IMG/VR virus record: IMGVR_UViG_3300035152_000026
Coordinates: 86,002-150,001 of that record
From: a virus
Direction: 5' to 3' (one strand)
Length of the DNA stretch: 64,000 bases
Positions 3,382-57,361 of this stretch are shown piece by piece. A model generated the notes under the pieces. It saw only the letters and a program-made list of their open reading frames with translations. It was not told where the DNA came from and made no database searches. Position 1 is the first letter of the stretch; each line of letters starts with the position of its first letter. The position numbers were made by a program, and so were the translations under genes.

Positions 3382-3782
3382 CGATGCCCGAAAGCTTCAC
3401 TGACCCCATGGTCTACACAGAGGAATGGGCCGTCTGCGGGCGCCTCGATCAGCCTGTGACCGACTACATGAAGGACCCTAACAACCCCTGGAAGTGGAAT
3501 CGTGGGCTCCTGGTTCGAGCGGGCGGCGTTGGAAGGCTTTGGCTCAGGGCGATCCCAGATCCACAGGGACGCCTCGACGGGTCAACTCCTCCAGAGGTCT
3601 CAGCCCACACCCGAGCGAAGCTTGCCGCCGCAGCTCCCTGCATGTTCCGCCTCCTGATGGACATCTACGAGAACCCTGACAAGGACTGGTCCCAGGAGAT
3701 CACCAACGTTACGCGCCGTGCTCTCGCAGGCCAAGGTTACTATTACTACCGTTGGAAGGAGCCCCGTGACCTCACCGAATGA
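3378..3782 (+). CDS. hypothetical protein
   Basis: The start ATG at 3378 overlaps the upstream stop (ATGA). The N-terminal part of ORF 3078..3782 is an alternate frame of the upstream gene. Confidence 0.45.
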   Translation: MTMPESFTDPMVYTEEWAVCGRLDQPVTDYMKDPNNPWKWNRGLLVRAGGVGRLWLRAIPDPQGRLDGSTPPEVSAHTRAKLAAAAPCMFRLLMDIYENPDKDWSQEITNVTRRALAGQGYYYYRWKEPRDLTE

Positions 3783-4182
3783 AGACCTGATAGAGCAGAT
3801 CGCTGAAGTCATCTATCGGCATGCTGGTGGAATCTGCCCTGAAGAGTTCGAGAACGTCTTCGGCAAGCCGCAGCGACACTGGAAGACCGACGCCCCTCGG
3901 GACACTCGCGATGACGAACTGCAAGAGCATGAACGCGATGAGTATCGGCTCCAGGCCCGCAAGGTTGTTGAGACCGTCGCCTCCTACCTCTTACTCGATG
4001 GCAAAGACAAGCTCATGGTGACGTTGCGAACGAAGGCCGAGCGCGACCGCTACCGCAAGCATGTCGCCAAATTGCGCGGAATGCTCTACCAGTGGTTACT
4101 GGTGCCCGAGGATCGTGATGCGCAACTGGAGCAAGAAACAAGCGCGTTGCTGGCTGAAACTGCCGACAAGGAGGCGCCGTGA
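3718..4182 (+). CDS. hypothetical acidic protein (true start probably internal, e.g. GTG near 3766)
   Basis: 154-aa ORF. The 5' part overlaps the previous gene, so the start is uncertain. Confidence 0.4.
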   Translation: MLSQAKVTITTVGRSPVTSPNEDLIEQIAEVIYRHAGGICPEEFENVFGKPQRHWKTDAPRDTRDDELQEHERDEYRLQARKVVETVASYLLLDGKDKLMVTLRTKAERDRYRKHVAKLRGMLYQWLLVPEDRDAQLEQETSALLAETADKEAP

Positions 4183-4471
4183 GCGCGATGAGGCAAGAAC
4201 ACGAAGTACGGCAACTGCGCAAACAGCTCGATACCTACAGAAAACAGCACAATGTGTGACGCTCCGCTCTGCAACCGGCCCGCGCTCAAGTGGGATCTCT
4301 GCACTGCACATCTCGTGCTGTTCTGCCATCTCCTCGACCGCCGAATCGAAATCCCAGAATTTGACCGGCTCATGTCGTTGCCTACTGAAACCATGCTACA
4401 GGAACTCAACCGGCGTTTTCAGGTGCCCCAGTAAAAGACCCGACCGTCATTACCACTCCAGATGGTTTCAG

Positions 4472-4696
4472 ATTCGCGCGATGAATAGGCACTGGTGCTG
4501 CATTTGCGGAGCGGGATTCGAGACGGCGGGCGGACTGCGGCGCCATCTTCGGAACGTTCACTCCGAGGATACGGTAACCGATCACTCCTTTCGAGCGATT
4601 CGCTATTCGCACAACGGGCAACTACGAACAGGGAATTGCGCGATCTGCTATCGGCCCGCGCAATTGCACATGCGAGGTGAGCATGGAGACAGTTGA
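4472..4696 (+). CDS. C2H2-type zinc-finger protein
   Basis: MNRHWCCICGAGFETAGGLRRHLRNVH is a classic C2H2 finger. The upstream part of ORF 4061..4696 is probably non-coding overlap. Confidence 0.4.
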   Translation: MRAMNRHWCCICGAGFETAGGLRRHLRNVHSEDTVTDHSFRAIRYSHNGQLRTGNCAICYRPAQLHMRGEHGDS

Positions 4697-7939: not shown

Positions 7940-10294
7940 GTGGAACTGCTGCAACCGAATCTGACCACTATTGGGGAGAGTGTCCTAGCGAAACGGTATC
8001 TGAAGCGGAACGAGAAAGGGGAAGTCATCGAGACGCCACGCGACCGCTTCGTTGCAGTAGCCAAGCATGTCGCACGAGCAGAACGCAATCACGGCGTCGA
8101 TCCGGAGACGGTGTGGCCCTCCTTCTATCGCATGATGGCCGCCCGAGATTTCATGCCAAACACGCCCTGCTTGGTAAATGCGGGACTGTCCGCCGGGCTC
8201 CTGTCCGCCTGCATCGTGTTGCCCATCGAGGACTCGATGCCGAGCATCTTCGGAACACTGCGCGACATGGCATTGAGCCACCAACAGGGCGCTGGGACGG
8301 GGTTCAGTTTTTCGCGGCTGCGCCCCAAAGACGACTTCGTGCGATCCACTACCGGACTTGCGAGTGGTCCGATCAGCTTCATGAAGGCATACAACAACGT
8401 TACGGAGTGCGTGAAGCAAAGCGGCGTTCGGCGCGGGGCGAACATAAGCGTCTTGCGTTGCGACCACCCGGATATTCTCGACTTCATCGACTGCAAGAAA
8501 GATCCGAGCGAGCTACAGAACTTCAACATCAGTGTCGGGATCACGAACGCCTTCATGGACGCGTTGGCAGCAGACGCAATGTACGCGCTGGTCAACCCAC
8601 GCACGAATGAGGTTGTGAGCGAGCTAGCAGCTCGAATGGTTTTCGATCGGGTCGTTCGCAACGCACATGCCACAGGTGAGCCAGGGCTCTTCTTCCTAGA
8701 TCGTGTGAATGAACTCGATCCGTTGACGACGGCCGACGATCCGATTGAAGCCCCAAATCCATGCGGCGAGCAGCCACTTCACCCGTATGACGCTTGCGAT
8801 CTGGGATCGATCAATCTCGTCAACTTCTACGACGTAGCAAATCGAGAATTGGACTTCAAGCGACTCGAAGCTACGACGCAGCTCGCTGTGCGCTTCCTCG
8901 ATGACATCCACGACGTCAACCAGTACCCGATTCCTCAGTTGGCAGAACGCACACGGGAAAATCGCCGTGTTGGCCTCGGCGTCATGGGCTGGGCGGACCT
9001 CCTGATCAAGATGGGTGTTCCCTACGCGTCACAGCAAGCGCGCGACCTCGCCGGCAACGTGATGAAGTTCATCAACACGCAGGCAATCGAAGCCAGCGAG
9101 GAGCTAGCAGCGCTTCGTGGACCGTTTCCAGCATTCGAGCGTTCAAAACACTTCACGGCGGGGCGCAAACACCGTCGCAACGGGACGGTGACCACGATTG
9201 CGCCAACCGGATCCATCTCGATCATCGCGGGATGTTCTAGCGGCATAGAGCCGTTGTTTGCCATCGTCCAGACGCGCAGGCAAGCCGACATGGAGATGGT
9301 AGACGTCAACCCAGACTTCGTCGAGATCGCGAAGCGGGAAGGCTTCTACAGTGATGCGCTCATGGAACGCGTCAAAGAGAACGGCACCGTTCGAGACGAT
9401 CCCGACGTGCCCACACGATGGCAACGTGTCTTCGCGGTCGCCAACGAAATCGATCCAGCTGCGCATGTGCAGATGCAAGCCGCATTTCAGCAGCACGTCG
9501 AGTGCGCGGTGTCCAAAACGATCAACATGCCCAAAGACGCGACCGTTGCTGACGTAGAACGCGCCTACAAGCTCGCCTGGGAAGAAGGTTGCAAGGGCAT
9601 CACGGTCTATCGCGATCAGTGCCGTGCGAATCAAACCCTGACGCTTGGTACCGGCAAGCGCCCCGAGCTGCACCCCATCCCGACGGGTACATATGATCTC
9701 CTCGGCGAGATGATCAAGACGCCCACAGGCAAGCTCAGCGTCAAGGTCGGGTTGGACATCAACGACCGGCCGTTTGAAACCTGGCTCGCTGTCAGCCGTG
9801 CTGGCACAGCAGTCAGCGCCGACTGTGAGGCCATTGCCCGGCTGGGATCCCTGGTGCTCCGGCTGGACAGCCCGATCAGCCCCGAGCGGCGCCTCCAGCT
9901 CATCGCGGACCAGCTCTCGGGCATCGGCGGGGGGGATTCGGTGGGATTTGGGCAAGAACGGGTCCTGTCACTCCCAGATGGGGTCGCCAAGGCCCTCCGT
10001 TCGCTCGCTGACGCGCTCGAAAGCCGCCGAGCGTCTACGCAGGCCTCGCCAGCAGAGGCCGTCGTAGAGCCTCCAGGGGCACCTAAGGGGGATAGCCACG
10101 GCAACGGGCACGGCAATGGGCACGGGCACGGAAATGGCCATGGAAACGGCAACGGGAATGGGAATGGCAACGGTAACGGCAACGGCCACAAACACGTTGC
10201 CTTCGGCGACATCTGCCCAGATTGCCACCAGGTCGCGCTGTACTACGCCGAGGGCTGCGCCAAGTGCGCGCTGTGCGGCTTCTCGCGTTGTTGA
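7940..10294 (+). CDS. nrdJ: ribonucleotide reductase, class II-like monomeric (adenosylcobalamin-dependent type), with a (GHGN)n low-complexity insert and a C-terminal zinc ribbon
   Basis: NPCGEQPLHPYDACDLGSINL is the RNR active-site motif. The length (784 aa) and the C-terminal CPDCH...CAKCALCGFSRC zinc ribbon fit the class II monomeric type. The GHGNGHGNGHGHGNGHGNGNGNGNGNGNGH insert lies at 10086-10190. Confidence 0.75.
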   Translation: MELLQPNLTTIGESVLAKRYLKRNEKGEVIETPRDRFVAVAKHVARAERNHGVDPETVWPSFYRMMAARDFMPNTPCLVNAGLSAGLLSACIVLPIEDSMPSIFGTLRDMALSHQQGAGTGFSFSRLRPKDDFVRSTTGLASGPISFMKAYNNVTECVKQSGVRRGANISVLRCDHPDILDFIDCKKDPSELQNFNISVGITNAFMDALAADAMYALVNPRTNEVVSELAARMVFDRVVRNAHATGEPGLFFLDRVNELDPLTTADDPIEAPNPCGEQPLHPYDACDLGSINLVNFYDVANRELDFKRLEATTQLAVRFLDDIHDVNQYPIPQLAERTRENRRVGLGVMGWADLLIKMGVPYASQQARDLAGNVMKFINTQAIEASEELAALRGPFPAFERSKHFTAGRKHRRNGTVTTIAPTGSISIIAGCSSGIEPLFAIVQTRRQADMEMVDVNPDFVEIAKREGFYSDALMERVKENGTVRDDPDVPTRWQRVFAVANEIDPAAHVQMQAAFQQHVECAVSKTINMPKDATVADVERAYKLAWEEGCKGITVYRDQCRANQTLTLGTGKRPELHPIPTGTYDLLGEMIKTPTGKLSVKVGLDINDRPFETWLAVSRAGTAVSADCEAIARLGSLVLRLDSPISPERRLQLIADQLSGIGGGDSVGFGQERVLSLPDGVAKALRSLADALESRRASTQASPAEAVVEPPGAPKGDSHGNGHGNGHGHGNGHGNGNGNGNGNGNGNGHKHVAFGDICPDCHQVALYYAEGCAKCALCGFSRC

Positions 10295-19586: not shown

Positions 19587-20060
19587 ATGATGCAAGCAAC
19601 AGCAGAGATTACCGAAGATGTATGGGCCCAACGACGTGCAGTGCGAGACCGCCTGAAAGCTGCGGTCAAACAGGCCAGCGGACGCAAAGCAACAGTCCTC
19701 TGCATGATGATTTCGCACATGCGGGGAAAGCTCCACTGCCAGAGCTATCAGAAGTACCACGGCGGCTGGCGATCCGTAGCGCAGCAACATGTCGAGGCCA
19801 TGCGCGCACGCAACCGGTTCGAGGAGCGGCTCGGGCCCGGCCAGGAACGCAAGTGGACCGAGTATCTCTTCGCCAGCTCGGTCATCGACACGCTCGACGA
19901 CCAAGCAGCATTTCTCCGCAAGTTCCTCGACGAGGAAGCCGTACAACGACGACGCTACGAGGAGGTCACGCAGAACGGGCGCCGCAAGCCGTACGTGTGG
20001 GAAACTCCTATGTTCGACGAGGAGTTGTGCAACATCTGCAAGGAGGTTTCGGCGACCTGA
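19587..20060 (+). CDS. hypothetical protein
   Basis: 157-aa ORF with GAAAGGA upstream. Confidence 0.4.
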   Translation: MMQATAEITEDVWAQRRAVRDRLKAAVKQASGRKATVLCMMISHMRGKLHCQSYQKYHGGWRSVAQQHVEAMRARNRFEERLGPGQERKWTEYLFASSVIDTLDDQAAFLRKFLDEEAVQRRRYEEVTQNGRRKPYVWETPMFDEELCNICKEVSAT

Positions 20061-20095
20061 CAGAATACGTCAGGCCTGGCCAGTATAGTCAGGCC

Positions 20096-21154
20096 ATGCT
20101 CACATCACCCTGTGACCTAGATCGGCCACCATTCGATGACCTGCACAGCTTCCGGTATTGGCGTAGGCAGGGCTATGTGCCTACCGCGCGGCTCGATGGC
20201 CGGAAAGAGTGGGGAGAGGTCTGTCATCTCCGCTGCCAATCGGATTCAAGTGTCGTAGCGTGTCCTAACAACATTGCCGGTGTACTTGCGTTAGAACGCC
20301 TCCACCAGGCTGTGGTCACGCGAACGTTCTTCGATCCGAAGACAGCACATGACACGGGTACGATCTACGTGACATTGATCCCACGTCCTGTCGTAGACTG
20401 GTTCTCGACATGCACGACGTCGGACGTCCACGAACAGATTGTGCTCTATCTCGGATTGCACATTGCACTCGGAGGCGACCAAGCGCTAATCCTACGTGAC
20501 ACTGCTCGTAAGTATCACGACAAGATTGTCAAACGCGTTGATACGTTACTCCGTGATCACCCCGATCTCCGCAACGATGAGCACGTCGTTGACTTGTCAC
20601 GTTACACGTCGAGTTTGCCTCCTTGGTTTCGACCCGAGCAAGTAACGTACGATAACCGTCGCCTGTGGACACTGCCGCCGCTGTGTCATATACCCTGGCC
20701 GAGGCGCACCAACCGGTGGGACACTTTTGGGATCATCAACTACCGGCTGACGGAAGTTGACGAAAAAAGGATCGACGACCACGAAAGCGATCCGCTTGAT
20801 CGCGCTGAGTCCTGCCCAGACGCGTTCGAGCACTTGCTCTATGCGCGTCACGCGAAAGACGCTTGGGCGACGATGTTTCAATCCGAGGATGACAACACAG
20901 GTGCTATCTATCTCATCCAGGATGGGCGTGGGCGTGTCAAAATCGGATGGACGGATAGTACACCTGCGAAGCGGCTAGCCGCACTACAGACCGGCAACGC
21001 TGATACGCTGCGGCTGCTAGGCACTATCCCCGGAACGCGAGAACAAGAGAAATATCTACACGCGAGATACGCCGACCAGAAAGCCCGTGACGAACGAACC
21101 GAATGGTTTTGTCTCACGCCAGCTGACGTGTTGGAGATTCTACGTGTGTCATAG
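20096..21154 (+). CDS. T5orf172 / GIY-YIG-like domain protein (C-terminal domain)
   Basis: The C-terminus (GAIYLIQDGRGRVKIGWT...RLAALQTGN...EQEKYLHARYA...EWF) matches the T5orf172/MUG113 family. The start is set at the first plausible Met; the 5' 474 nt of ORF 19622..21154 is the alternate frame of the upstream gene. Confidence 0.5.
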   Translation: MLTSPCDLDRPPFDDLHSFRYWRRQGYVPTARLDGRKEWGEVCHLRCQSDSSVVACPNNIAGVLALERLHQAVVTRTFFDPKTAHDTGTIYVTLIPRPVVDWFSTCTTSDVHEQIVLYLGLHIALGGDQALILRDTARKYHDKIVKRVDTLLRDHPDLRNDEHVVDLSRYTSSLPPWFRPEQVTYDNRRLWTLPPLCHIPWPRRTNRWDTFGIINYRLTEVDEKRIDDHESDPLDRAESCPDAFEHLLYARHAKDAWATMFQSEDDNTGAIYLIQDGRGRVKIGWTDSTPAKRLAALQTGNADTLRLLGTIPGTREQEKYLHARYADQKARDERTEWFCLTPADVLEILRVS

Positions 21155-21178
21155 CCGTGTGGTAGCGTCGCAGACCAC

Positions 21179-21251
21179 ACACCCGTAGCTCGAAGGCCGA
21201 GCGTGCAGTCTGTGGAGCTGCAAGGTGGGGGTTCGATTCCCTCCGGGTGTA
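21179..21251 (+). tRNA. isolated tRNA-like gene with an ambiguous anticodon arm (9-nt loop, or 6-bp stem with GTG)
   Basis: Acceptor ACACCCG/CGGGTGT, D-arm GCTC/GAGC, T-arm GGGGG-TTCGATT-CCCTC (identical to the T-arm of tRNA-Thr at 54409). The anticodon region is TGCAG-TCTGTGGAG-CTGCA. Confidence 0.45.
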
Positions 21252-21262
21252 CCGGAGGATCG

Positions 21263-21478
21263 ATGACGCCGAAAGAAGCAGTGAACCATCCAGCACACTA
21301 CGCGTTCAGTCGCATCGAAGTCATCGACGCGATCGAGGCCTGGCAGCTAGGTTTTCACGAAGGCAACGTAGTGAAGTACGTTGCGCGCGCACGCCACAAA
21401 GGAAACGAGCTAGAAGACCTTCAGAAGGCGCAGTGGTATCTGTCGCGACGAATCAACCAACTCACAGAGGGAAGCTAG
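21263..21478 (+). CDS. DUF3310-family phage protein
   Basis: NHPAHY...IEVIDAIEAW...GNVVKYVARARHKG...EDLQKAQWYL matches the DUF3310 signature. GGAGGA lies upstream of ATG 21263. Confidence 0.5.
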   Translation: MTPKEAVNHPAHYAFSRIEVIDAIEAWQLGFHEGNVVKYVARARHKGNELEDLQKAQWYLSRRINQLTEGS

Positions 21479-22165
21479 ATGAACATTGAACGGATTCACG
21501 TGTATGGTTTCGAGGCGGCCCTTCGCGGCATGCGCAATCCGATGAACAGCTGGGACAAGTCCGACACGCAGTTCAATCAGTATTGGGAGGAGAGAGAACA
21601 AGAAATGTTTGCTCACCTCACTTGCCCGGAGCGCCCGCTGATTGGGCCGAAGGACATGCAGCGCGCCTGCAAGCTCATCAAAGCAGGTACCGACCACCGC
21701 AAGTTTCTGCGTCAGATCATGGTCTGGTGGGACATCACAATTCCGCGTTGTGTCTGGCAAGAGCTGGACACTTACAAAGTGGCGACAGTGCGGAACAGTT
21801 GCTCGACCATGCACAAGCTTGGCAGCCGCGATCTGGAACCCAGTGACTTCCAGGACAGCGACGTGAATGCTGACGTATTGGGGGAACAAAACGCGATGGG
21901 CGCAGCTTACCGCGAACACCGCGCGTATCACGCCGCCAACGGCCAAGACTACGAAGGCGTCGCGTTGCTCGCTCACATGAAGCGCCGGCTTCCCGAAGGT
22001 TTCTTGCAGATGGCCACCTACTCGTTCTCATACGAGACCGGCCTTGCGATGTACCGGTCGCGGCACAACCACCGAATGCCCGAGTGGAGTGGCCCCGGCG
22101 GAATCTGCGAAACGCTGCTACGCCTGCCGTACTTCAAGGAGTTCGTTGAGGCAGCCATGATGTGA
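21479..22165 (+). CDS. hypothetical protein (228 aa)
   Basis: Clean ORF. A distant ThyX-like resemblance was considered and rejected. Confidence 0.45.
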   Translation: MNIERIHVYGFEAALRGMRNPMNSWDKSDTQFNQYWEEREQEMFAHLTCPERPLIGPKDMQRACKLIKAGTDHRKFLRQIMVWWDITIPRCVWQELDTYKVATVRNSCSTMHKLGSRDLEPSDFQDSDVNADVLGEQNAMGAAYREHRAYHAANGQDYEGVALLAHMKRRLPEGFLQMATYSFSYETGLAMYRSRHNHRMPEWSGPGGICETLLRLPYFKEFVEAAMM

Positions 22166-22177
22166 TACGCTGGCACT

Positions 22178-22588
22178 ATGCCCGCGTCCACTACTGCCCT
22201 TGAAGCTCTCCAACGGTTCCGCGCATTCGTAGAGGCACTACCACCGAGTGCAAACGTGTTCGTCTACGAACTCAATGTGGCACCCCATGAATTCTGGATC
22301 GAGAACGGCCGCGGTTGGGTTTCGTCGATATTCATCGATCAGCTCAACAAGGAATTCCGCGTCAGCATCCCCGAATTTCCGACGACGGTTGTTGGAGCAC
22401 GGACGTCGCTCGGGCCCGCGGCAGAGCTGCAAGCAGTGCTCGCCCGCGTAGGTCAAAAGAAGCGCTACAGCCGAAAGACTGCAATCGGCGTAGCGACAGC
22501 GGTCGGGGTAGCTGCCGCGCTCGGATCCTTTGCCGTCGGTTGGACACGCAGGCCAGGCCCGTCAAGAATCCTCTATCCAGGGCCGTAA
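22178..22588 (+). CDS. hypothetical protein
   Basis: 136-aa ORF. Confidence 0.35.
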   Translation: MPASTTALEALQRFRAFVEALPPSANVFVYELNVAPHEFWIENGRGWVSSIFIDQLNKEFRVSIPEFPTTVVGARTSLGPAAELQAVLARVGQKKRYSRKTAIGVATAVGVAAALGSFAVGWTRRPGPSRILYPGP

Positions 22589-22618
22589 CCTGCCAAAACT
22601 GCTACGATATATTTTCAA

Positions 22619-22700
22619 GACGAATCGCGTCCGCGATTAGAATATCCGGTCGTGTACCTCGTCTCACTATAAGACGGCCCCGAGGGGCGAAGGAGACGAG
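22619..22700 (+). promoter_or_regulatory. conserved ~80-bp leader (palindrome copy 5 ATCGCGTCCGCGAT at 22623-22636, CCCCGAGGGG element, AAGGAG Shine-Dalgarno) upstream of the UvrD-like helicase gene. Paralogous to 58820-58902.
   Basis: Long alignment with the region upstream of the SNF2 gene at 58903: AATCGCGTCYGCGA...GAATAT...CCCCGAGGGG.GAAGGAGA..AGATG. Confidence 0.5.
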
Positions 22701-24161
22701 ATGGGAACCTGGAACTGGAGCGAACAACAGGAAGAAATCTTCAGCTGGTTCGAGCACGGGCACGGCAACCTGGTGGTGGTCGCCCGCGCGGGCACCGGCA
22801 AGACCACGACCGTGCTCGAAGGCGCCAACCGCGCCCCCGAGCGCAGCATCCTGTTCGCGGCCTTCAACAAGAAGATCGCGACCGAGCTTCAGACCAAGAT
22901 CACGAACCGCAATGCAGAGGCCAAGACGCTGCACGCGCTCGGCTTCGCATTCCTCCGCCAGTACGACCGTCGCCTCCGCGTGGACGGGCAGCGCGGCTAC
23001 AAGATCGCGCGCGACGTCTGCGGCCAGGACGTCCCCGAGGACATCGTGTCGCTCGTCGCCAAGCTCGCCTCGCGTGGCAAGGGCATGGCGCCGTTCGCCG
23101 AGAAGATGGGCGACCTGACCGACATCGCGTACGACCATGACTGCGTACCCGATGAGGAGTGGGAGCGCGACGGCTACGACCTCGCCTATGTCGAGCGCCA
23201 CGCCCTCAAGGCGATGGACAAGGCTTGTGACCGCGACGGCAGCATCGACTTCGACGACATGGTGTTCATCCCCGTGCGTCGGCAGCTCACCCGCGCCTGG
23301 TACAACCTCGTGATCATCGACGAGTGCCAGGATATGAACGCCGCCCAGATCACGCTCGCGATGAAGGCCTGCAAGCGCGGCGGCCGCATCGCTGTCATCG
23401 GCGACAACCGTCAGGCCATCTACGGCTTCCGCGGCGCCGACTCCGAGAGCATCAGCCGGCTCAAGGCTGAGCTGAACGCGGCCGAGCTGAAGCTCACCAC
23501 GACCTATCGCTGTGGCAAGGTCATCGTGGCCGAGGCCGCTCAGCTCGTTCCCGACTACGAGGCCGCGCCGACCGCGCCCGAGGGCGAGATCACCACGCTC
23601 CCCAAGACCAAGCTTGCTGAGACGGCCGTCGAGGGTGACTTCATCCTGAGCCGCACCAACGCGCCGCTCGTGAGCGTCTGCCTCAAGTGCCTGCGCCTCG
23701 GCAAGCGTGCCCGCATCGAGGGCCGTGACATCGGCGCCGGGCTGCTCGCCCTGGTCAAGAAGCTCGCAACGGGCCCTGCCCGCAAGTCCATCGCGAGCCT
23801 TCTGGAGAAGCTCACGGCCTGGGAGGAGCGCGAGGTCGCCCGTGCTCGCAAGAGCAGCGACAAGAACGCCGAGACGCGTGTCGAGACTATCGAGGACAAG
23901 GCTGAAACCCTTCGTCTGCTGGCCGAAGGTCTCGCCAACGTCGAGGAGCTGAAGACCCGTCTCGACGAGCTGTTTGAGGACTCGAACGGCCACCGGCCGA
24001 AGATCGTGTGCAGTACGGTTCACAAGGCCAAGGGCCTCGAAGCTGACCGCGCATTCCTGTTGTCGAGCACCTTCCGTCCTGTTGGTACTGCCCTCGAAGA
24101 GGACAACATCCGCTACGTTGCGGTGACTCGCGCAAAGAGCGTCCTGACCTGGGTCGAGTAA
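22701..24161 (+). CDS. SF1 DNA helicase, UvrD/Rep/PcrA family
   Basis: Walker A (ARAGTGKTTT), Walker B/DExx (VIIDECQDM), TYRCG (motif IV), STVHKAKGLEADRAF (motif V) and VAVTRAKSVL (motif VI). Confidence 0.8.
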   Translation: MGTWNWSEQQEEIFSWFEHGHGNLVVVARAGTGKTTTVLEGANRAPERSILFAAFNKKIATELQTKITNRNAEAKTLHALGFAFLRQYDRRLRVDGQRGYKIARDVCGQDVPEDIVSLVAKLASRGKGMAPFAEKMGDLTDIAYDHDCVPDEEWERDGYDLAYVERHALKAMDKACDRDGSIDFDDMVFIPVRRQLTRAWYNLVIIDECQDMNAAQITLAMKACKRGGRIAVIGDNRQAIYGFRGADSESISRLKAELNAAELKLTTTYRCGKVIVAEAAQLVPDYEAAPTAPEGEITTLPKTKLAETAVEGDFILSRTNAPLVSVCLKCLRLGKRARIEGRDIGAGLLALVKKLATGPARKSIASLLEKLTAWEEREVARARKSSDKNAETRVETIEDKAETLRLLAEGLANVEELKTRLDELFEDSNGHRPKIVCSTVHKAKGLEADRAFLLSSTFRPVGTALEEDNIRYVAVTRAKSVLTWVE

Positions 24162-24213
24162 GGCGCCAATTCCGTTTGGGCCTCGGGGGCTGGTGCGATT
24201 CCAGCCATCCCGA

Positions 24214-31636: not shown

Positions 31637-31986
31637 GGTAACGTTCTTTTAGCACGTGGGTGTGACCACCCTGCTCGACGCCGCAAACGAGCCTCCCTGA
31701 CTAGCTCAGCGTTTCGATGCACTTCAGCTTCCGCTACGATACGGGTAGCGCCAGCCTTGTGATCAGACTGCGGATTTGGTCCGATGAGGCTGACGAAGTC
31801 GGGCAACGAATCCGCAGCGACAAGCGTCGCAGTGTAGGAGTCCAACACGTAAGCCTTGACTTCCCCGACACACGTCACCCAGCCGACCACGTTCCGCAAT
31901 CGTGGCTGCGTGGCGTCGTGGTCCTCATAGATCGCGAAGTAGCCCGAAGCTGCGGTACAGAAAGTCATTTGCGCAGGTTTAGACAT
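31633..31986 (-). CDS. hypothetical protein
   Basis: 117-aa ORF overlapping its neighbours by 4-8 nt. Confidence 0.4.
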   Translation of the reverse strand: MSKPAQMTFCTAASGYFAIYEDHDATQPRLRNVVGWVTCVGEVKAYVLDSYTATLVAADSLPDFVSLIGPNPQSDHKAGATRIVAEAEVHRNAELVREARLRRRAGWSHPRAKRTLP

Positions 31987-34900
31987 CTGCCCAGCTCCGG
32001 CCTTTCGCAGGGTCTACCGAGAAGTGAATCGTGACGCCGTTATGTGTGTGAGTCTGCTCGAAGCAGTCTTTGACGTCAGTCATCAAGCGGTCGCCGTCAG
32101 CCTCGTCGCACTCGAAAACGATGGCGTCGTGGATCTGGATGATCGGGTCAGCGTTGGAGTATTCGTTGCGTAGCTTTGGCATCAAACGGAGGAGCCCAGT
32201 GGCCATGATGTCAGCTCCAGTCGACTGAACCGGGAAGTTGTACACGTCGTTCATGTCAGCGTTGCCCAGAGGGAAACACCGTCGCCGACCGTAGATTGCC
32301 GACCGCAGCTCGTGCGGTGGCTGGGCAACGTCTCGCAGAAGCTTCTGATGCCACGCCGTAACGCCGGGCATCCGCGCGGTCATCAACGCGACCATCCGCG
32401 CGATGTCAGCCTGCTTTACGTCCGGGTAGTCCTTGACCACGTTCTTCCAGAGCGTGTCGATCGACCCTCCGTAGAATGCCCCATACTCGGGCCGCTTGAC
32501 CGTATCGCGGAGAACCTTGCGGCGCTCATAAGGTAACTCGTCGAAGTTGGGCCAAACGATGCGTGCGAACTCGCTGTGGATATCCTTCCCGTCGTTGAAG
32601 ATCGCGCACAGGAATGGATCGCCGGAAAGAAGTGCGATGATTCGTGCTTCTAGCTGCGCGAAGTCGAAGCCAACAAGGATCCGTCCAAGGCGTGCTTCAA
32701 ACTGTTTGCGGAGATTTGGGCGCCCCTTCTTCGCGTCAGCTTTCGGCACGTTCTGGCAGACTGGATCTTCAGCACTCCATCGGCCTGTGATCCGATGGAC
32801 ATTCCACCGCGGATGCACGCGACTGTTCGCGTCTGCATAGCCGTACTTGACGATGTTGCCCTGTTCGTCATATCGATCAAAGAGCGCGTAGACGAAGGTA
32901 GAGAACAGTTTCTGATTCTCGCGGTAGTCCAACAGGCTACGTACTTCGGGGATGTGCGCGAAGCTTTCCAGGATCTCTTTCTTCGTGGACGTCGAACCCT
33001 TCTCGGTCAGGAAGTAGAGCGGCACTCCACGAGCCTTTAGATAACCAACGATGTGATCCGAGGAGCCAACGTTCCACTCCCACGTAGCTTTATCGATGGA
33101 ATCGAGCAGCTCTTGCAGGCGTACCTTTTGTCGCTCCCGATAGTCTTCCGGATCTGGCTCTTTACCTTTTGGGTTACGTGCGAACTTCGCTTGCTCGGCT
33201 GCAATGCCAACCCATAGCTCTTCCTGGATCTCAGGCCGGGCAGCGTCGTCCTCAACGATCTTACGGAGCGCTTCGTTTTCCTTGTCGCTACGCCACGCGT
33301 AGAGTGCTTGGATGGCTGGGTGCTTGTCCGCGTGATCTTTGAGCCACGCCTTCGTGATGCTGGCCGCACCCTTTTTGGTCAGGGGCACATCAAGCCCGTG
33401 GACCTTCAACCAACCAGCAAGATGCGCCGACGAATTGATTTGCCACTTCCAAGCGCCTCTGTCTGCGGCGATCCGAATTTCGTCCAAGCGAACCTGTTGT
33501 CGGGCCTCGTAGCGTTCGGGGTCCTGTTTGGCCGCAGTCCCTTTGCGAACACGCTTGGCTTGCTCTGCCGCGATGCGATCAAGCAGCTTGTCGCGGATCT
33601 CAGGGTTGTTAGCCTTCTCTTCGATTTCTGCACGCGCCCGCTGCATGTTCTGCCAGAACTGATCGTAGAGCTGTTGATTCACCTCCTGTGAAACCGGGAT
33701 GCCCGCGTCGTACATCCATTCCGCGGCTTCTGCGCACAGAAGATCAATCTCGTAGCACTTCGCAGACTGTGTGCGCGCGATGGCGATATCGAGGGGCTCG
33801 TCGAGGCGTGCGGTAACTAGTGTGTCCTTGGCGTTATAGATTACGAGGTTCTCAACCGTGTCTTTGCCTTCACGGAACTCCGATTTCCACGGCGTGATCG
33901 CGAAGTACTGCGTAGCCGCGCGTTGCAGGTTGTGCGAAAGGCCAGGAAAGGCTGCGTGGTGTTTGAGCAACGTGTCATCGACTGGACCGTGTACGGGCAT
34001 TCCATGCCGTTTCAAAACACCACGGTCATATATCGAGTTGTGGAACACGACACGAACAAGCGGATCGGCCATAAGCGCAGCCATGAGGCGCTTGGCCATC
34101 GGTGTGACGATGTTCCATGCTATCGAAAGGCCCCACTTTGGGGTAGCGAAGCCGATGGCGGTCAACTTTGCGTTGATGGGCTGTAGTGCAGAATGCTGTT
34201 GCTCGTTGTCTACGTAGGTCTCGGTGTCGCAGGCTACCATGCGCTCTCTGCGAGCATCTTGCACCATCCGACGCATAAGCATCTCGGCGCGTCTGGCGTC
34301 AGCGTACTCGACGACGATGTCCTCCTCGCGGAAGACGATATCGCGTCCGGCAGCGATGGCCTTCACCTTCGCTGCGTCGTACATCAGATTCCAGAAAGCA
34401 ATGTCTGGCGAGTGCGCGCCGCCAATTCCGGCGCCCCCGCGGAGGATTGCCGCAGGGTGAATCGTTGGGATGACTGCGCGGTAGCCTGAACCGTCCGCGT
34501 TGACCTGATGATAGGAGCCCGCCAACGCCTGGATCGAAGTGTTGCGCCCGAGGAATGCGCGAGTTGCCACAGCACCGAGGGCGAGCACAGGAAGGCCTGG
34601 GCGCTCAACCATCTCTGCGGTAAAACGTGGCTCGCAGCACTTGCGGGCCTTTTCTTTCAAGTTGTCGTCAGCCTCTGGTGGCGGTCGGCACAACGTAACG
34701 TTAGACACCCACAAGCGGCGCCGATCTTGCCCAACGGCTGTGAGTGCTTTGTTGACCAACTGCCCGCTAGCGCCAACGAACGGACGGCCTAAAGCAGCTT
34801 CGTGCTGACCCGGACCTTCACCAATGACAATCCATTCCGGCGTCGCTGACCCCTCCCCAACAACAGGTTGGTTAGGTTGTCTATTTCTGGCTAGTGGACA

Positions 34901-34993
34901 ATCTTCACACAGCGCGCCCTCGATGCGCCCACGAATCATCGGTGCAGGTCCTGCACGTAGAACAGGACTCTGTCCTTGCGGACGTAACCGCAT
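31979..34993 (-). CDS. polA: DNA polymerase I-family (family A) polymerase with an N-terminal family-4 uracil-DNA glycosylase-like domain (UDG-PolA fusion)
   Basis: N-terminus: GEGPGQHEAALGRPFVGASGQLVNKAL...HPAAILR (UDG family 4 motifs). C-terminus: DFAQLEARI (motif A), RRKVLRD...YGAFYG (motif B), QIHDAIVFE (motif C). 1004 aa. Confidence 0.85.
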   Translation of the reverse strand: MRLRPQGQSPVLRAGPAPMIRGRIEGALCEDCPLARNRQPNQPVVGEGSATPEWIVIGEGPGQHEAALGRPFVGASGQLVNKALTAVGQDRRRLWVSNVTLCRPPPEADDNLKEKARKCCEPRFTAEMVERPGLPVLALGAVATRAFLGRNTSIQALAGSYHQVNADGSGYRAVIPTIHPAAILRGGAGIGGAHSPDIAFWNLMYDAAKVKAIAAGRDIVFREEDIVVEYADARRAEMLMRRMVQDARRERMVACDTETYVDNEQQHSALQPINAKLTAIGFATPKWGLSIAWNIVTPMAKRLMAALMADPLVRVVFHNSIYDRGVLKRHGMPVHGPVDDTLLKHHAAFPGLSHNLQRAATQYFAITPWKSEFREGKDTVENLVIYNAKDTLVTARLDEPLDIAIARTQSAKCYEIDLLCAEAAEWMYDAGIPVSQEVNQQLYDQFWQNMQRARAEIEEKANNPEIRDKLLDRIAAEQAKRVRKGTAAKQDPERYEARQQVRLDEIRIAADRGAWKWQINSSAHLAGWLKVHGLDVPLTKKGAASITKAWLKDHADKHPAIQALYAWRSDKENEALRKIVEDDAARPEIQEELWVGIAAEQAKFARNPKGKEPDPEDYRERQKVRLQELLDSIDKATWEWNVGSSDHIVGYLKARGVPLYFLTEKGSTSTKKEILESFAHIPEVRSLLDYRENQKLFSTFVYALFDRYDEQGNIVKYGYADANSRVHPRWNVHRITGRWSAEDPVCQNVPKADAKKGRPNLRKQFEARLGRILVGFDFAQLEARIIALLSGDPFLCAIFNDGKDIHSEFARIVWPNFDELPYERRKVLRDTVKRPEYGAFYGGSIDTLWKNVVKDYPDVKQADIARMVALMTARMPGVTAWHQKLLRDVAQPPHELRSAIYGRRRCFPLGNADMNDVYNFPVQSTGADIMATGLLRLMPKLRNEYSNADPIIQIHDAIVFECDEADGDRLMTDVKDCFEQTHTHNGVTIHFSVDPAKGRSWADV

Positions 34994-54480: not shown

Positions 54481-54484
54481 CTGA

Positions 54485-54558
54485 TCCCTCGTAGCTCAAT
54501 TGGTAGCAGCACCTGGCCGTTAACCAGGGGGTTATCCGTTCAAGTCGGATCGAGGGAG
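54485..54558 (+). tRNA. trnN: tRNA-Asn (GTT), D-stem with a one-base insertion
   Basis: Acceptor TCCCTCG/CGAGGGA, anticodon CCTGG-CCGTTAA-CCAGG, T ATCCG-TTCAAGT-CGGAT. Confidence 0.55.
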
Positions 54559-54626
54559 CTACTGGTAGTCAAAGGAAAGGCCCTCGTTGACTAACGCAGG
54601 ATCGTACTCTCAGGTACCTTAGAGCT

Positions 54627-55136
54627 ATGGAATGCGCCAAGTGCCACGAAGAGTTTCCTACTCGAATAGTCATAGACGGGAAGGTGCGGAACCTGTCGAG
54701 TCGTAGGTACTGCGTTTCCTGCTCCCCATTTGGGGCTAACAATCGGAAGAAGATCCACATCCACGATATAAGACGTAAGCCGACTAGGTGTAGGTTGTGC
54801 TCAGGGAAGCTAGTCCCCGGGAAAGGGGATGTATGCTACACCTGTCGATCTAGGATTAGGCGATATCGGGTGAAGGTTGCGGCTATAACCCTCCTTGGCG
54901 GAAAGTGTCAACGCTGTGGTTTCTCAGGGAGTCCAGCAGCCTTTGAGTTCCACCACAACGGTAAGAAGGACTTTCAGATCAGCGAGAACAGCAACCGAGC
55001 GTGGGCTGTAGTCAAGAAGGAAGTTCTGAAATGCGAACTCCTGTGTTCCAATTGCCATCGACAGGAGCACACTGGAGATAGGGGGGAGGCGTTCCTTCGT
55101 GCCGTAGCGGAGTACAGAGGGATGCCCCTGACCTGA
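54627..55136 (+). CDS. HNH endonuclease inserted in the tRNA array (homing-endonuclease-like)
   Basis: Cys pairs CAKCH/CVSC and CQRCG; FEFHH...CSNCHRQEH is the HNH motif. Local GC is lower than the flanks. Confidence 0.7.
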   Translation: MECAKCHEEFPTRIVIDGKVRNLSSRRYCVSCSPFGANNRKKIHIHDIRRKPTRCRLCSGKLVPGKGDVCYTCRSRIRRYRVKVAAITLLGGKCQRCGFSGSPAAFEFHHNGKKDFQISENSNRAWAVVKKEVLKCELLCSNCHRQEHTGDRGEAFLRAVAEYRGMPLT

Positions 55137-55138
55137 CT

Positions 55139-55209
55139 GGCTTCGTAGTCAAGTGGCAAGGCACGGGTCTGCAAAACCTGTATCGTGGGTTCGACTCCCA
55201 CCGAAGCCT
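55139..55209 (+). tRNA. trnC: tRNA-Cys (GCA)
   Basis: Acceptor GGCTTCG/CGAAGCC, anticodon loop CTGCAAA, T GTGGG-TTCGACT-CCCAC. Confidence 0.6.
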
Positions 55210-55253
55210 CCGCAAAGCAAGCATTCCCAGTGACGAGGGAAAACACGTCCTCT

Positions 55254-55325
55254 GGCCTCGTCTGCTAACGGTCAAGCAGCTGGTCTTTCAAGCCAGCAAT
55301 CCGAGTTCGATTCTCGGCGGGGTCA
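55254..55325 (+). tRNA. trnE: tRNA-Glu (TTC)
   Basis: Acceptor GGCCTCG/CGGGGTC (two G-U pairs), anticodon CTGGT-CTTTCAA-GCCAG, T CCGAG-TTCGATT-CTCGG. Confidence 0.55.
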
Positions 55326-55329
55326 CAAC

Positions 55330-55402
55330 CGGAGCGTAGGGTATTTGGCAACCCGCTTGGTTTGGGACCAAGAGCATGCAGGTTCGAGTCCTGTCGCTCC
55401 GA
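55330..55402 (+). tRNA. trnP: tRNA-Pro (TGG)
   Basis: Acceptor CGGAGCG/CGCTCCG, anticodon CTTGG-TTTGGGA-CCAAG, T GCAGG-TTCGAGT-CCTGT. Confidence 0.7.
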
Positions 55403-55403
55403 C

Positions 55404-55475
55404 CGGGGTGTAGCGAAGCGGTATCGCGCATGGTTCGGGACCATGAGATCGCTGGTTCGATCCCAGCCACTCCGA
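55404..55475 (+). tRNA. trnP: tRNA-Pro (CGG)
   Basis: Acceptor CGGGGTG/CACTCCG, anticodon CATGG-TTCGGGA-CCATG, T GCTGG-TTCGATC-CCAGC. Confidence 0.7.
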
Positions 55476-55479
55476 CTGA

Positions 55480-55550
55480 TCCCCTGTAGCTCAACAGGAG
55501 AGCACTCGCTTGATAAGCGAGAGATGACAGCGCAACTCTGTCCGGGGGAA
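55480..55550 (+). tRNA. trnI: tRNA-Ile (GAT), atypical T-loop CGCAACT
   Basis: Acceptor TCCCCTG/CGGGGGA, anticodon CTCGC-TTGATAA-GCGAG. Confidence 0.55.
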
Positions 55551-55555
55551 CTGAT

Positions 55556-55630
55556 GGTGGGCGTAGCTCAATGGCAGAGCGCGCGGTTGTGGCCCGCGTG
55601 ATGGAAGTTCGATTCTTCTCGCTCACCCCA
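55556..55630 (+). tRNA. trnH: tRNA-His (GTG) with encoded G-1, C73 discriminator and CCA
   Basis: G-1 precedes acceptor GTGGGCG/CGCTCAC. Anticodon CGCGG-TTGTGGC-CCGCG. T GGAAG-TTCGATT-CTTCT. Confidence 0.7.
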
Positions 55631-55644
55631 AGAAGTCATAGTTA

Positions 55645-55680
55645 GAGCGGGAAGTGCAGGTTCGATTCCTGTCGGTTGCG
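55645..55680 (+). pseudogene. orphan tRNA 3' fragment (T-arm GCAGG-TTCGATT-CCTGT plus acceptor-like 3' strand); decayed partial duplicate of the tRNA-Pro(TGG) 3' half
   Basis: AGTGCAGGTTCGATTCCTGTCGGTTGCG vs the Pro 3' half GCATGCAGGTTCGAGTCCTGTCGCTCCG. There is no room for a 5' half after tRNA-His. Confidence 0.4.
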
Positions 55681-55721
55681 GTCGCCGCGCCGTGGTGTAA
55701 CAAGGGAGCACGCTCGCGTTT

Positions 55722-55793
55722 GGAGCTGTAAGCATCTGGTGAGGCTACCGGTCTGTCTAACCGGCGAGGCGGGTTCAATTCCCGTCAGCTCCG
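55722..55793 (+). tRNA. trnD: tRNA-Asp (GTC)
   Basis: Acceptor GGAGCTG/CAGCTCC, anticodon CCGGT-CTGTCTA-ACCGG, T GCGGG-TTCAATT-CCCGT. Confidence 0.65.
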
Positions 55794-55865
55794 CGGCTAG
55801 AGGTGTGGCGCGAAAGCGAAGCCCTAAACCGTCACCTCCGAGCGGGTGCGAGGCCCGCATTTGTT

Positions 55866-55936
55866 GGCCCAGTAGCACAACGGCAGGGCGCTTGCCTTAT
55901 AAGCGAGTGATCTAGGTTCAACTCCTAGCTGGGCTA
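55866..55936 (+). tRNA. tRNA-Ile (TAT) (rare AUA-reading anticodon as encoded)
   Basis: Acceptor GGCCCAG/CTGGGCT, anticodon CTTGC-CTTATAA-GCGAG, T CTAGG-TTCAACT-CCTAG. Confidence 0.5.
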
Positions 55937-55947
55937 CAAATCCGTTT

Positions 55948-56020
55948 GCCACCCAAGCTAACCAAGTGGAAGCGCCGGCCTGAAAAGCCGGAGGGCTCGG
56001 AGCGTTACCGAGGAGTGGCA
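55948..56020 (+). tRNA. tRNA-Phe (GAA)-like with a non-canonical T-loop
   Basis: Acceptor GCCACCC/GAGTGGC (one mismatch), anticodon CCGGC-CTGAAAA-GCCGG (canonical Phe loop), T-like CTCGG-AGCGTTA-CCGAG. Confidence 0.35.
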
Positions 56021-56067
56021 CGGCCAAGAGACGGACGCGTCTCCGAGCGGGTGGAAGGCCCGCACAA

Positions 56068-56139
56068 GGGCCAATAGTGATAAAGGGAACACGCTGCTTT
56101 CGCACGGCAGAGATCTGGGTTCGATTCCCAGTTGGTCCA
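56068..56139 (+). tRNA. trnA: tRNA-Ala (CGC)
   Basis: Acceptor GGGCCAA/TTGGTCC, anticodon CTGCT-TTCGCAC-GGCAG, T CTGGG-TTCGATT-CCCAG. Confidence 0.55.
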
Positions 56140-56306
56140 CAATGCAGGAGCACGTACCTGCCTTGCTGCTGGGCGAACAGACAGCGTAGTCGGGCTTAGC
56201 TAGCTGCGGACTTGCTGGGAGCTTCCAGTATTGGCCTCTGAGGAGGGACGCCTCTGTTCGAGGAGGAGACAAAAACGTGTCGGCGGGGTTAGTTCCTCGT
56301 CGTTAT

Positions 56307-56379
56307 GGGCACCCATGTACCAAGGGGGCGATCTGGCCTTGCAAGCCGGATGTGGTCGGTTCGATCCCGACGGTGTCCA
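56307..56379 (+). tRNA. tRNA-like, Ala (TGC)-type anticodon loop CTTGCAA, irregular D-arm
   Basis: Acceptor GGGCACC/GGTGTCC, T GTCGG-TTCGATC-CCGAC. The D region does not fold canonically. Confidence 0.35.
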
Positions 56380-56403
56380 CGAGCGGGTGGAAGGCCCGCC
56401 TAA

Positions 56404-56475
56404 GGGCTGCTAGTGATAACGGGAACACATCTGGTTTGCACCCAGAAGATCGGGGTTCGATTCCCCGGCGGTCCA
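56404..56475 (+). tRNA. trnA: tRNA-Ala (TGC)
   Basis: Acceptor GGGCTGC/GCGGTCC, anticodon TCTGG-TTTGCAC-CCAGA, T CGGGG-TTCGATT-CCCCG. Confidence 0.55.
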
Positions 56476-56479
56476 CGAC

Positions 56480-56551
56480 GCCCTCGTAGCTCAATGGAGA
56501 GAGCACTCGCCCGGTACGCGAGAGATGACAGTTCGATTCTGTCCTTGGGCT
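56480..56551 (+). tRNA. tRNA-Thr (GGT)-like, two acceptor-stem mismatches
   Basis: D GCTC/GAGC, anticodon CTCGC-CCGGTAC-GCGAG, T GACAG-TTCGATT-CTGTC. Acceptor GCCCTCG vs CTTGGGC. Confidence 0.4.
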
Positions 56552-56558
56552 CTGATTC

Positions 56559-56627
56559 GCCTCTGCCGGTGGAGCCGGACTCCGGGCTACGAACTCGGAA
56601 GACGAGGTTCGATTCCTCGTAGAGGCA
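56559..56627 (+). tRNA. trnR: tRNA-Arg (ACG), compact D-arm (69 nt)
   Basis: Acceptor GCCTCTG/TAGAGGC, anticodon CCGGG-CTACGAA-CTCGG, T CGAGG-TTCGATT-CCTCG. Confidence 0.55.
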
Positions 56628-56631
56628 CGAT

Positions 56632-56699
56632 GCCACTGCTGGTGGAACAGATTCGGGTCTCCTAAACCTGAAGAGATGGTTCGACTCCGTCCAGTGGTA
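56632..56699 (+). tRNA. trnR: tRNA-Arg (CCT), compact D-arm (68 nt)
   Basis: Acceptor GCCACTG/CAGTGGT, anticodon CGGGT-CTCCTAA-ACCTG, T GATGG-TTCGACT-CCGTC. Confidence 0.55.
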
Positions 56700-56702
56700 C
56701 TT

Positions 56703-56770
56703 GCCTCTACTCATGGATGAGGCGCTGCTCTTCTAAAGCAGCTACTCGGGTTCGATTCCTGATGGAGGCG
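56703..56770 (+). tRNA. trnR: tRNA-Arg (TCT), compact D-arm (68 nt)
   Basis: Acceptor GCCTCTA/TGGAGGC, anticodon CTGCT-CTTCTAA-AGCAG, T TCGGG-TTCGATT-CCTGA. Confidence 0.55.
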
Positions 56771-56774
56771 CTTT

Positions 56775-56923: not shown

Positions 56924-56924
56924 C

Positions 56925-57205: not shown

Positions 57206-57208
57206 GTG

Positions 57209-57279: not shown

Positions 57280-57283
57280 CGTG

Positions 57284-57357: not shown

Positions 57358-57361
57358 GTTG

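Follow-up and report, generated by a model that had tools for sequence, protein, structure and literature searches.

The tRNA Gene and Its Immediate Surroundings

An isolated tRNA gene lies at positions 21179-21251 (plus strand) of a 64,000-nucleotide stretch of viral DNA (IMG/VR record IMGVR_UViG_3300035152_000026, record positions 86,002 to 150,001), which was analysed at its full length and is referred to here as the window. The gene is placed between an endonuclease-like gene and a DUF3310 gene, and it carries a histidine anticodon on a body of arginine type. ARAGORN calls it tRNA-His(gtg) (21179-21253), and the Rfam tRNA model RF00005 scores it at 49.6 bits (gathering threshold 29; E = 1.3e-7 for the whole window), which is mid-range among the tRNAs of the window (34-70 bits). 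The original prediction, which had described a tRNA-like gene here and had named a covariance score below threshold, together with absent transcription, as the outcome that would speak against it, is thus borne out. The parts of the gene are as follows.

21179-21251, plus strand: isolated tRNA gene, 73 nucleotides (nt) up to the discriminator A73 (ARAGORN, RF00005, sequence)
21179-21185 and 21244-21250, plus strand: acceptor stem, ACACCCG and CGGGUGU, followed by A73 (ARAGORN, RF00005)
21188-21202, plus strand: D arm, GCUC-GAAGGCC-GAGC, preceded by UA and followed by a junction G at 21203 (ARAGORN, RF00005)
21204-21209 and 21217-21222, plus strand: anticodon helix of 6 bp, UGCAGU and GCUGCA (ARAGORN, RF00005)
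21210-21216, plus strand: anticodon loop CUGUGGA, 7 nt, with the anticodon GTG at 21212-21214 (ARAGORN drawing, Infernal alignment)
21223-21226, plus strand: variable loop, AGGU (ARAGORN, RF00005)
21227-21243, plus strand: T arm, GGGGG-UUCGAUU-CCCUC (ARAGORN, RF00005)

This is a genuine, well-folded tRNA-like gene. All stems are intact and free of mismatches, with two G.U pairs in total, and the acceptor stem consists of seven Watson-Crick pairs out of seven, as the original prediction had it. U8, G18, G19, U33, G53, U54, U55, C56, A58, and C61 are present, together with A15/U48 and G26/A44-45; the only conserved positions that deviate are 14 and 21. The T arm and the C that follows it are identical to those of a tRNA-Thr(TGT) at 54409-54481, about 33.2 kb away, an identity that had also been pointed out before. 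However, tRNA-Ser(TGA) and many unrelated tRNAs share this T arm, which makes the identity uninformative on origin or relatedness.

The surrounding genes form a run on the plus strand.

19587-24161, plus strand: gene run of 4.6 kb, whose first open reading frame (ORF) encodes 157 amino acids (aa) (gene calls)
20027-21154, plus strand: upstream gene with a C-terminal T5orf172/MUG113 domain, endonuclease-like (Pfam, gene calls)
21252-21265, plus strand: CC (positions 74-75, with no encoded terminal A) at 21252-21253, Shine-Dalgarno sequence GGAGGA at 21254-21259, and DUF3310 start codon ATG at 21263
21263-21478, plus strand: DUF3310 gene, 71 aa, directly downstream (Pfam annotation on contigs, PHROGs)
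21479-22165, plus strand: gene for a 228-aa protein (phrog_6721, no Pfam family), followed by a small ORF
22701-24161, plus strand: UvrD-type helicase gene, at the end of the plus-strand run

The stop codon of the T5orf172 gene is 24 nt upstream of the tRNA. On the other side, the start of DUF3310 is based on gene calls on identical contigs and on homologues that align from residues 1-5. The tRNA had been thought to overlap the ribosome-binding site and start region of DUF3310 with its 3' end, but the features abut instead, with A73 at 21251, the Shine-Dalgarno sequence from 21254, and the ATG at 21263. Next to the tRNA, neither a sigma-70-like promoter nor an intrinsic terminator was found, which makes co-transcription followed by excision the likely route to a mature molecule. 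CCTCCGG at 21240-21246 (T stem and 3' strand of the acceptor) is the exact reverse complement of CCGGAGG at 21252-21258 (CC and Shine-Dalgarno sequence), and the resulting 7-bp hairpin could hide the DUF3310 ribosome-binding site in an unprocessed or misfolded precursor. This complementarity may also simply reflect how common the T-stem sequence is. Pairing predicted between the 5' leader and the anticodon arm does not exceed chance expectation, being equalled by 10.5% of shuffled sequences.

The plus-strand genes constitute an island (19587-24166) between long minus-strand blocks on either side, and no terminal repeats flanking this island were found. Among otherwise identical metagenome contigs, there are indels of 5 or 24 extra bases at 19824/19825 and of one extra base at 20763 (in contig L004). 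The T5orf172-domain gene is split in the gene calls of that contig, consistent with a frameshift from the extra base.

Two other genes of the window are mentioned here for their own sake. An 868-aa protein encoded at 45486-48092 matches the shoulder and repeat domains of the major vault protein (PF11978, E = 3e-30), which are uncommon in phages. A family-A DNA polymerase encoded at 31979-34993 (minus strand) has a fused N-terminal domain of the uracil-DNA-glycosylase superfamily, and its cultured-phage homologues are about 25-30% identical.

The Anticodon Arm and the D Arm

The anticodon loop is canonical and comprises seven nucleotides (C32-U33-G34-U35-G36-G37-A38), closed by a U.G pair in both ARAGORN and Infernal. 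Below it, ARAGORN draws a six-pair helix (U-A, G-C, C-G, A-U, G-C, and U.G), one spacer G past the D stem, and a 4-nt variable loop, while in the Infernal alignment these bases form a 5-bp stem, with one U inserted after G26 and a variable loop of 5 nt. Linear numbering is standard, with the anticodon at 34-36, T54 at 54, and the discriminator at 73; the D loop is shorter by one base, and there is one extra base at the junction of the D and anticodon arms. It is the pairing of this extra nucleotide with A44 that yields the six-pair helix. Six anticodon pairs as such are drawn by ARAGORN for 24 of the 90 sampled tRNAs, because positions 26 and 44 are complementary in them. The unusual trait of the isolated tRNA is the combination of six pairs and a spacer, rather than six pairs alone. 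This combination is also found in five low-scoring tRNAs of the main tRNA array of the phage (Trp, one Ala, Arg-CCT, Arg-TCT, and one Met). The original prediction had read the letters of the arm (TGCAG and CTGCA around the loop) as they stand and had rightly found the arm odd. It had offered either a 9-nt loop or a 6-bp stem, of which the stem holds and the enlarged loop does not, since both programs place a 7-nt loop.

In the D arm, G14 and C21 stand in for the near-universal A14 and A21 and are able to pair, which would give a 5-bp D stem. The exact 17-mer of this arm, TAGCTCGAAGGCCGAGC, is present in five IMG/VR contigs and lies within tRNAs in four of them, all from unrelated phages: Gly-TCC, Met-CAT (on a Brevibacillus phage Jenst-like contig), Thr-GGT, and one without assigned specificity. 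These four tRNAs with the D arm GCUC-GAAGGCC-GAGC all have 4-nt variable loops.

L094:3233-3306: tRNA with G14 and C21
L095:830-903, minus strand: tRNA with G14 and C21
L096:2236-2309: tRNA with G14 and C21
L098:10738-10811, minus strand: tRNA with G14 and C21

Because the arm recurs in four unrelated phage tRNAs, its odd sequence is not decay. It looks like a recurrent phage tRNA scaffold that is presumably workable. As a separate observation, ARAGORN gives the tRNA at L096:2236-2309 a four-base anticodon (tgta) in an 8-nt loop, and this viral contig also bears a tRNA-Met.

A Body of Arginine Type

The last 22 bases of the gene, GGTTCGATTCCCTCCGGGTGTA (T loop, 3' strand of the T stem, 3' strand of the acceptor, and A73), have exact matches in nine of the 185,579 species genomes searched and in three IMG/VR contigs. 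The 12 matches are without exception tRNA-Arg genes (anticodons TCG, ACG, CCG, and CCT) with the acceptor GCACCCG/CGGGTGT-A, and in its acceptor and T-arm sequence the isolated tRNA is typical of this family. Global identity amounts to 61/73 (84%) with the tRNA-Arg(UCG) of a Pirellulales metagenome-assembled genome (MAG) and to 75-78% with three further bacterial or phage tRNA-Arg, as against 46/73 (63%) with the tRNA-His of the phage itself. When the anticodon arms are aligned, CAGU-CU-UCG-GA-ACUG of the Pirellulales tRNA faces CAGU-CU-GUG-GA-GCUG of the isolated tRNA, with CAGUCU-NNG-GA-NCUG in common. Among GenBank phages, the sole near full-length match is a tRNA-Arg(ACG) of Streptomyces phage LuckySocke, with the loop CU-ACG-GA.

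A bacterial-type tRNA-Arg(NCG) can be recognised in the acceptor stem, the T arm, and the flanks of the anticodon loop. In the simplest history, a tRNA-Arg(NCG) would have had its anticodon changed at positions 34 and 35, its D loop replaced or shortened, and its anticodon helix extended by one pair. The three tRNA-Arg of the phage itself were considered as possible ancestors and ruled out, as their acceptor stems differ (GCCUCU, GCCACU). Neither the arginine-type acceptor and T domains nor the recurrent phage D arm had been part of the original prediction.

Charging Identity and the tRNA Array

The anticodon GTG at 21212-21214 is that of canonical bacterial tRNA-His. The pair of G-1 with C73 is absent, with C at -1 (21178) and A at 73 (21251), in agreement with the earlier statement that the histidine identity elements are missing. 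It was reported that loss of G-1 alone lowers the catalytic efficiency of histidyl-tRNA synthetase (HisRS) from E. coli and yeast more than 100-fold (PMC3064791). On the other hand, an anticodon-reading HisRS of some alphaproteobacteria uses A73, U72 (with G1), GUG, G37, and a 9-nt D loop with U20a (PMC3064791). The isolated tRNA possesses U72, A73, GUG, and G37; its position 1 is A, and its D loop has seven nucleotides and lacks U20a. With its G-1 and C73, the tRNA-His of the array speaks for a host whose HisRS is of the ordinary kind. With regard to arginine, arginyl-tRNA synthetase (ArgRS) relies on C35, and the bacterial enzyme also on A20. The isolated tRNA has neither, with U at position 35 and, in the D loop GAAGGCC, C at position 20.

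Some other phage tRNA-His also depart from the usual rule. The one of phage T5 (L117:10207-10284; NC_005859 30206-30283) has U instead of G at -1 and retains C73, and according to its GenBank record it is an effective amber suppressor after anticodon replacement. Another, from a viral contig of 107 kb (L114:6755-6830), combines t at -1 with C1:G72 and A73. Phages may be able to do without an encoded G-1 more often than bacteria. A second histidine decoder, as had been suggested for the isolated gene, is possible.

The main tRNA array and the features bearing on the need for an extra gene are listed below.

53880-58760, plus strand: tRNA array, about 40 tRNAs for all 20 amino acids (relaxed ARAGORN and permissive Rfam scoring)
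55557-55630, plus strand: canonical tRNA-His(GTG), with g at -1, C73, and encoded CCA, used as comparator
54318-54402 (Tyr), 55480-55551 (Ile-GAT), 55948-56021 (Phe), and 56559-56628 (Arg-ACG): array tRNAs added by relaxed ARAGORN or permissive Rfam scoring
56774-56845 and 56850-56923 (two Met) and 58273-58354 (Ser-CGA): further array tRNAs added in the same way
54627-55136 and 57771-58319: HNH endonuclease genes among the array tRNAs

The array includes three tandem tRNA-Arg (ACG, CCT, and TCT). About a quarter of it falls below the Rfam tRNA threshold and shows short D arms or the spacer-plus-six-pair anticodon helix. The phage prefers CGC and CGU for arginine and CAC over CAU for histidine. 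Since the array covers all 20 amino acids, the isolated tRNA is an extra one that fills no decoding gap.

Relatives of the Locus

The same phage is represented by six metagenome or SRA contigs with 98.8-100% identity, and the five that cover the tRNA (L001-L005) have it in identical form. No DNA match to the locus was detected among GenBank phages in either near or distant mode. The family of the 228-aa protein is very large (8000 scored matches at E <= 1e-10) and not syntenic. Across 80 metagenome loci of its relatives, synteny is lost and no Rfam-confirmed tRNA stands beside the 228-aa gene; the one such tRNA in the set is a tRNA-Leu about 900 nt upstream of that gene (L060). Calls of 95-nt 'tRNA-His' in two loci (L051 and L053) were rejected as ARAGORN false positives, as Rfam finds nothing there. 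The pair of DUF3310 and 228-aa genes is kept in at least one distant low-GC phage (L021:3685-4690, the only locus here to do so), where the genes overlap and no tRNA is present. In IMG/VR, relatives of UvrD reach no more than 53% identity and are non-syntenic, and the sole homologue of the T5orf172 protein (P0122, 39% identity, aligned over about 370 aa) has no tRNA beside its gene.

True relatives were recovered through ribonucleotide reductase (RNR), namely L116 and the contig of P0124, which are collinear with the window over 5.9-16.5 kb but have UvrD at another place, with no tRNA or T5orf172 gene beside it. L116 shows 60-85% protein identity in the collinear part and carries an integrase. 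Its UvrD gene (77.6% identical) is located upstream of RNR, with ThyX in turn upstream of UvrD and one gene between them; this different placement indicates a rearrangement. Homology to L116 starts at window position 22660, which places the tRNA within a segment unique to the phage. Neither BLASTP nor Pfam relates the 228-aa protein to the ThyX of L116.

Two side observations concern these relatives. The proteins closest to the RNR of the window (7940-10294), P0124 and P0125, contain intein and homing-endonuclease insertions that are absent from the window copy. In a related temperate phage (L100:2-1271, the same as L007), an integrase, a 71-aa gene, and a 228-aa gene (74% identical) are followed by genes 85-95% identical to window 3718-4696, an arrangement that shows mosaic exchange among these phages.

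No host could be assigned from homologues. Cellular RNR matches are about 46% identical and taxonomically mixed, and cultured-phage homologues reach about 25-30%. As the closest cellular tRNA, that of the Pirellulales MAG gives only a weak lead to the host.

Interpretation and Alternatives

Directly from the DNA we read the fold, the body of arginine type, the lack of identity elements, and the genomic context, and we infer the expression, processing, charging, and decoding of the tRNA. As a tentative reading, held with somewhat less than even confidence, the gene encodes a genuine, remodelled accessory tRNA that is excised from an operon transcript and probably serves as an auxiliary, weakly charged reader of CAY codons. 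It would be transcribed together with the T5orf172, DUF3310, 228-aa, and UvrD genes of the same-strand run. RNase P would cut its 5' end, and an endonuclease would cut its 3' end after A73, followed by CCA addition; the latter cut would leave a DUF3310 message that starts two bases ahead of its Shine-Dalgarno sequence. The mature tRNA would be an extra reader of the histidine codons CAC and CAU. As G-1 and C73 are missing, its charging is proposed to be inefficient or anticodon-driven.

Several points weigh against this reading. Besides the absence of G-1 and C73, a canonical tRNA-His is already present in an array that covers all 20 amino acids, and the D loop has seven nucleotides instead of the nine needed by the anticodon-reading HisRS (PMC3064791). 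The recovered copies are all identical, come from one phage population, and give no sign of conservation. Four exact or degenerate patterns (the anticodon arm with the GUG loop, combined with the D arm or an Arg-type 3' half) gave no other match in IMG/VR. One scan of the 185,579 species genomes with just the anticodon-arm pattern was also without a match. The partial relatives lack the tRNA in their recovered stretches, though their contigs end before the equivalent of 17-21 kb.

Two alternatives are serious rivals, both held with the same confidence, which is lower than that in the preferred reading. The element could be a non-decoding tRNA-like RNA, either a substrate of RNase P and the 3' endonuclease that splits the endonuclease-like message from the DUF3310-helicase message, setting the 5' end of the latter next to its ribosome-binding site, or a decoy for defences that target tRNAs. 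The marks for HisRS and for ArgRS are both missing, while the acceptor and T arm, which are read by processing enzymes, are perfect; the Shine-Dalgarno sequence begins 3 nt past the discriminator, and the CCTCCGG/CCGGAGG complementarity could conceal the ribosome-binding site until processing. In addition, annotated 'tRNA-like stable RNAs with unknown functions' exist in the tRNA region of phage T5, and it is known that tRNAs of phages can counteract defences that cleave tRNAs (PMC10264068, PMC11464382, PMC11555353). Yet the fully canonical anticodon loop (U33, G37, and C32/A38) would be superfluous in a pure processing signal, the CCUCC motif is a common T-stem sequence also found in the Thr and Ser tRNAs, and the leader-to-anticodon pairing stays at the level of chance. 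Alternatively, the gene may be a neutral passenger or young pseudogene, a tRNA-Arg copy moved from a cluster by endonuclease-linked recombination whose anticodon drifted from NCG to GUG and which now does nothing. An arginine-type body that has lost C35 and A20 would fit it, as would the position 24 nt past a gene with the T5orf172 domain, which we take to be a member of the GIY-YIG superfamily. Further points in its favour are the two HNH endonuclease genes within the array, the several degenerate-looking array tRNAs, the frameshifting indel in the T5orf172 gene of one metagenome variant, and the island at 19.6-24.2 kb between minus-strand blocks, whose UvrD gene is elsewhere in L116. There are also precedents among phage nucleases: the GIY-YIG endonuclease SegB in the tRNA cluster of T4 drives the inheritance of that region (PMC2330249), and nuclease genes mark exchange boundaries in phages (PMC10448857). 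On the other side, the stems are free of mismatches, every tertiary position is retained, the D arm is well formed and recurs elsewhere rather than being decayed, the only homologue of the T5orf172 protein has no adjoining tRNA, and useless DNA is usually shed by phage genomes.

The remaining explanations are far less probable. It is improbable that the phage keeps a tRNA with mismatched body and anticodon on purpose, so as to place a non-cognate residue at histidine codons or to offer an uncharged lure to a tRNA-targeting host system, with the lengthened helix as part of the adaptation. The spacer-plus-six-pair design shared by several array tRNAs could then point to a phage-wide strategy. 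The more specific form, in which arginine or another residue is attached by way of the body and inserted at histidine codons, is very improbable. It would suit an arginine-type acceptor/T domain joined to a histidine anticodon, and natural mismatched tRNAs are known, including a bacterial tRNAPro-like family that mistranslates (PMC10404621). However, C35 and A20, which are textbook requirements of ArgRS, are absent, and no aminoacyl-tRNA synthetase gene was found among roughly 55 of the larger window ORFs that were scanned. Slighter still is the chance that the sequence is a phage attachment site (attP) on the 3' end of tRNA-Arg for integration into a host tRNA-Arg gene, as had been suggested in general terms for an attachment element. 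Nine bacterial species do have tRNA-Arg genes whose 3' ends equal its last 22-27 bases, the same segment matches more weakly at unannotated corynephage beta sites and at tRNA-Arg features ending Corynebacterium prophage records, and integrases are present in two related phages. Instead of a partial 3' segment next to an integrase, though, the tRNA is complete, a full cloverleaf with the matching 5' acceptor strand; neither Pfam, applied to about 55 of the larger ORFs, nor tblastn, for which the integrases of the two related phages served as queries (E > 1), revealed an integrase in the 64-kb window, and phage genes are absent beside the matching bacterial tRNA-Arg genes. A set of replication genes such as PolA, RNR, and several helicases, along with about 40 tRNAs, fits, in general experience, a large lytic phage better. 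Hardly credible at all is the suggestion that the gene is a frameshift suppressor that decodes more than three bases. The loop becomes nine nucleotides long (UCUGUGGAG) if the closing U.G pair opens, but ARAGORN and Infernal agree on a 7-nt loop with U33 and G37 at their canonical places, rather than the 8- or 9-nt loop with an enlarged anticodon of such suppressors. The extension is symmetric, one base per side, as expected of an extra pair and not of an enlarged anticodon; the oddity of the arm comes down to an inserted junction nucleotide.

If the tRNA is made and charged, the preferred reading of an accessory tRNA would provide a natural change of tRNA family from Arg to His without the usual histidine identity marks, bearing on the evolution of tRNA identity and on the strictness of the G-1 requirement of the host HisRS. 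If it is uncharged, it would add to the poorly understood stable tRNA-like RNAs of phage genomes and offer a case in which the start of an adjacent message is fixed by tRNA processing. The practical weight is modest, as one gene of one uncultured phage population is concerned.

Comparison with Known Systems

In gene arrangement, there is a resemblance to phage T5 (NC_005859), in whose tRNA region tRNA genes are likewise interspersed with homing-endonuclease genes and small ORFs. One T5 tRNA-Arg is separated from the main cluster by about 3.5 kb, and a pseudo-tRNA and 'tRNA-like stable RNAs with unknown functions' also belong to the region. The tRNA-His of T5 has no encoded G-1, although it differs from the isolated tRNA in retaining C73. 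The T5 elements are recorded as stable RNAs in the GenBank entry, whereas the present one is a predicted RNA. T4 is similar in having the GIY-YIG endonuclease SegB within its tRNA cluster (PMC2330249).

Six pairs under a 7-nt anticodon loop are also found in tRNASec, tRNAPyl, and mitochondrial tRNASer(UCN) (PMC7609411). Those tRNAs compensate by a single connector nucleotide, a 3-nt variable loop, or a 13-bp acceptor/T helix (PMC7609411), whereas here the sixth pair is an inserted U with A44, and the connector, T arm, and overall length are standard.

Among histidine tRNAs, the G-1-less alphaproteobacterial type (PMC3064791) shares the missing G-1, A73, U72, GUG, and G37, but it has G1-U72 and a 9-nt D loop with U20a, where the isolated tRNA has A1-U72 and a 7-nt loop. 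The canonical bacterial tRNA-His of the array (55557-55630) shares GUG, G37, and a similar D stem (GUAGCUC...GAGCG); in comparison, the isolated tRNA has C at -1, A73 for C73, no encoded CCA, and 63% identity.

The likeness is greatest with tRNA-Arg(NCG) bearing the acceptor GCACCCG/CGGGTGU-A, as in Pirellulales and LuckySocke. The acceptor is shared at six of seven positions in the 5' strand and at all seven in the 3' strand, as are U72, A73, the identical T arm, C32, U33, G36, G37, A38, and the stem core CAGU/NCUG. In contrast, the isolated tRNA has GUG instead of NCG (U35 for C35), A instead of G at position 1, a 7-nt D loop without A20, one extra anticodon-helix pair, and four unpaired variable-loop nucleotides. 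It is an unusual variant of a familiar kind of tRNA, seen once.

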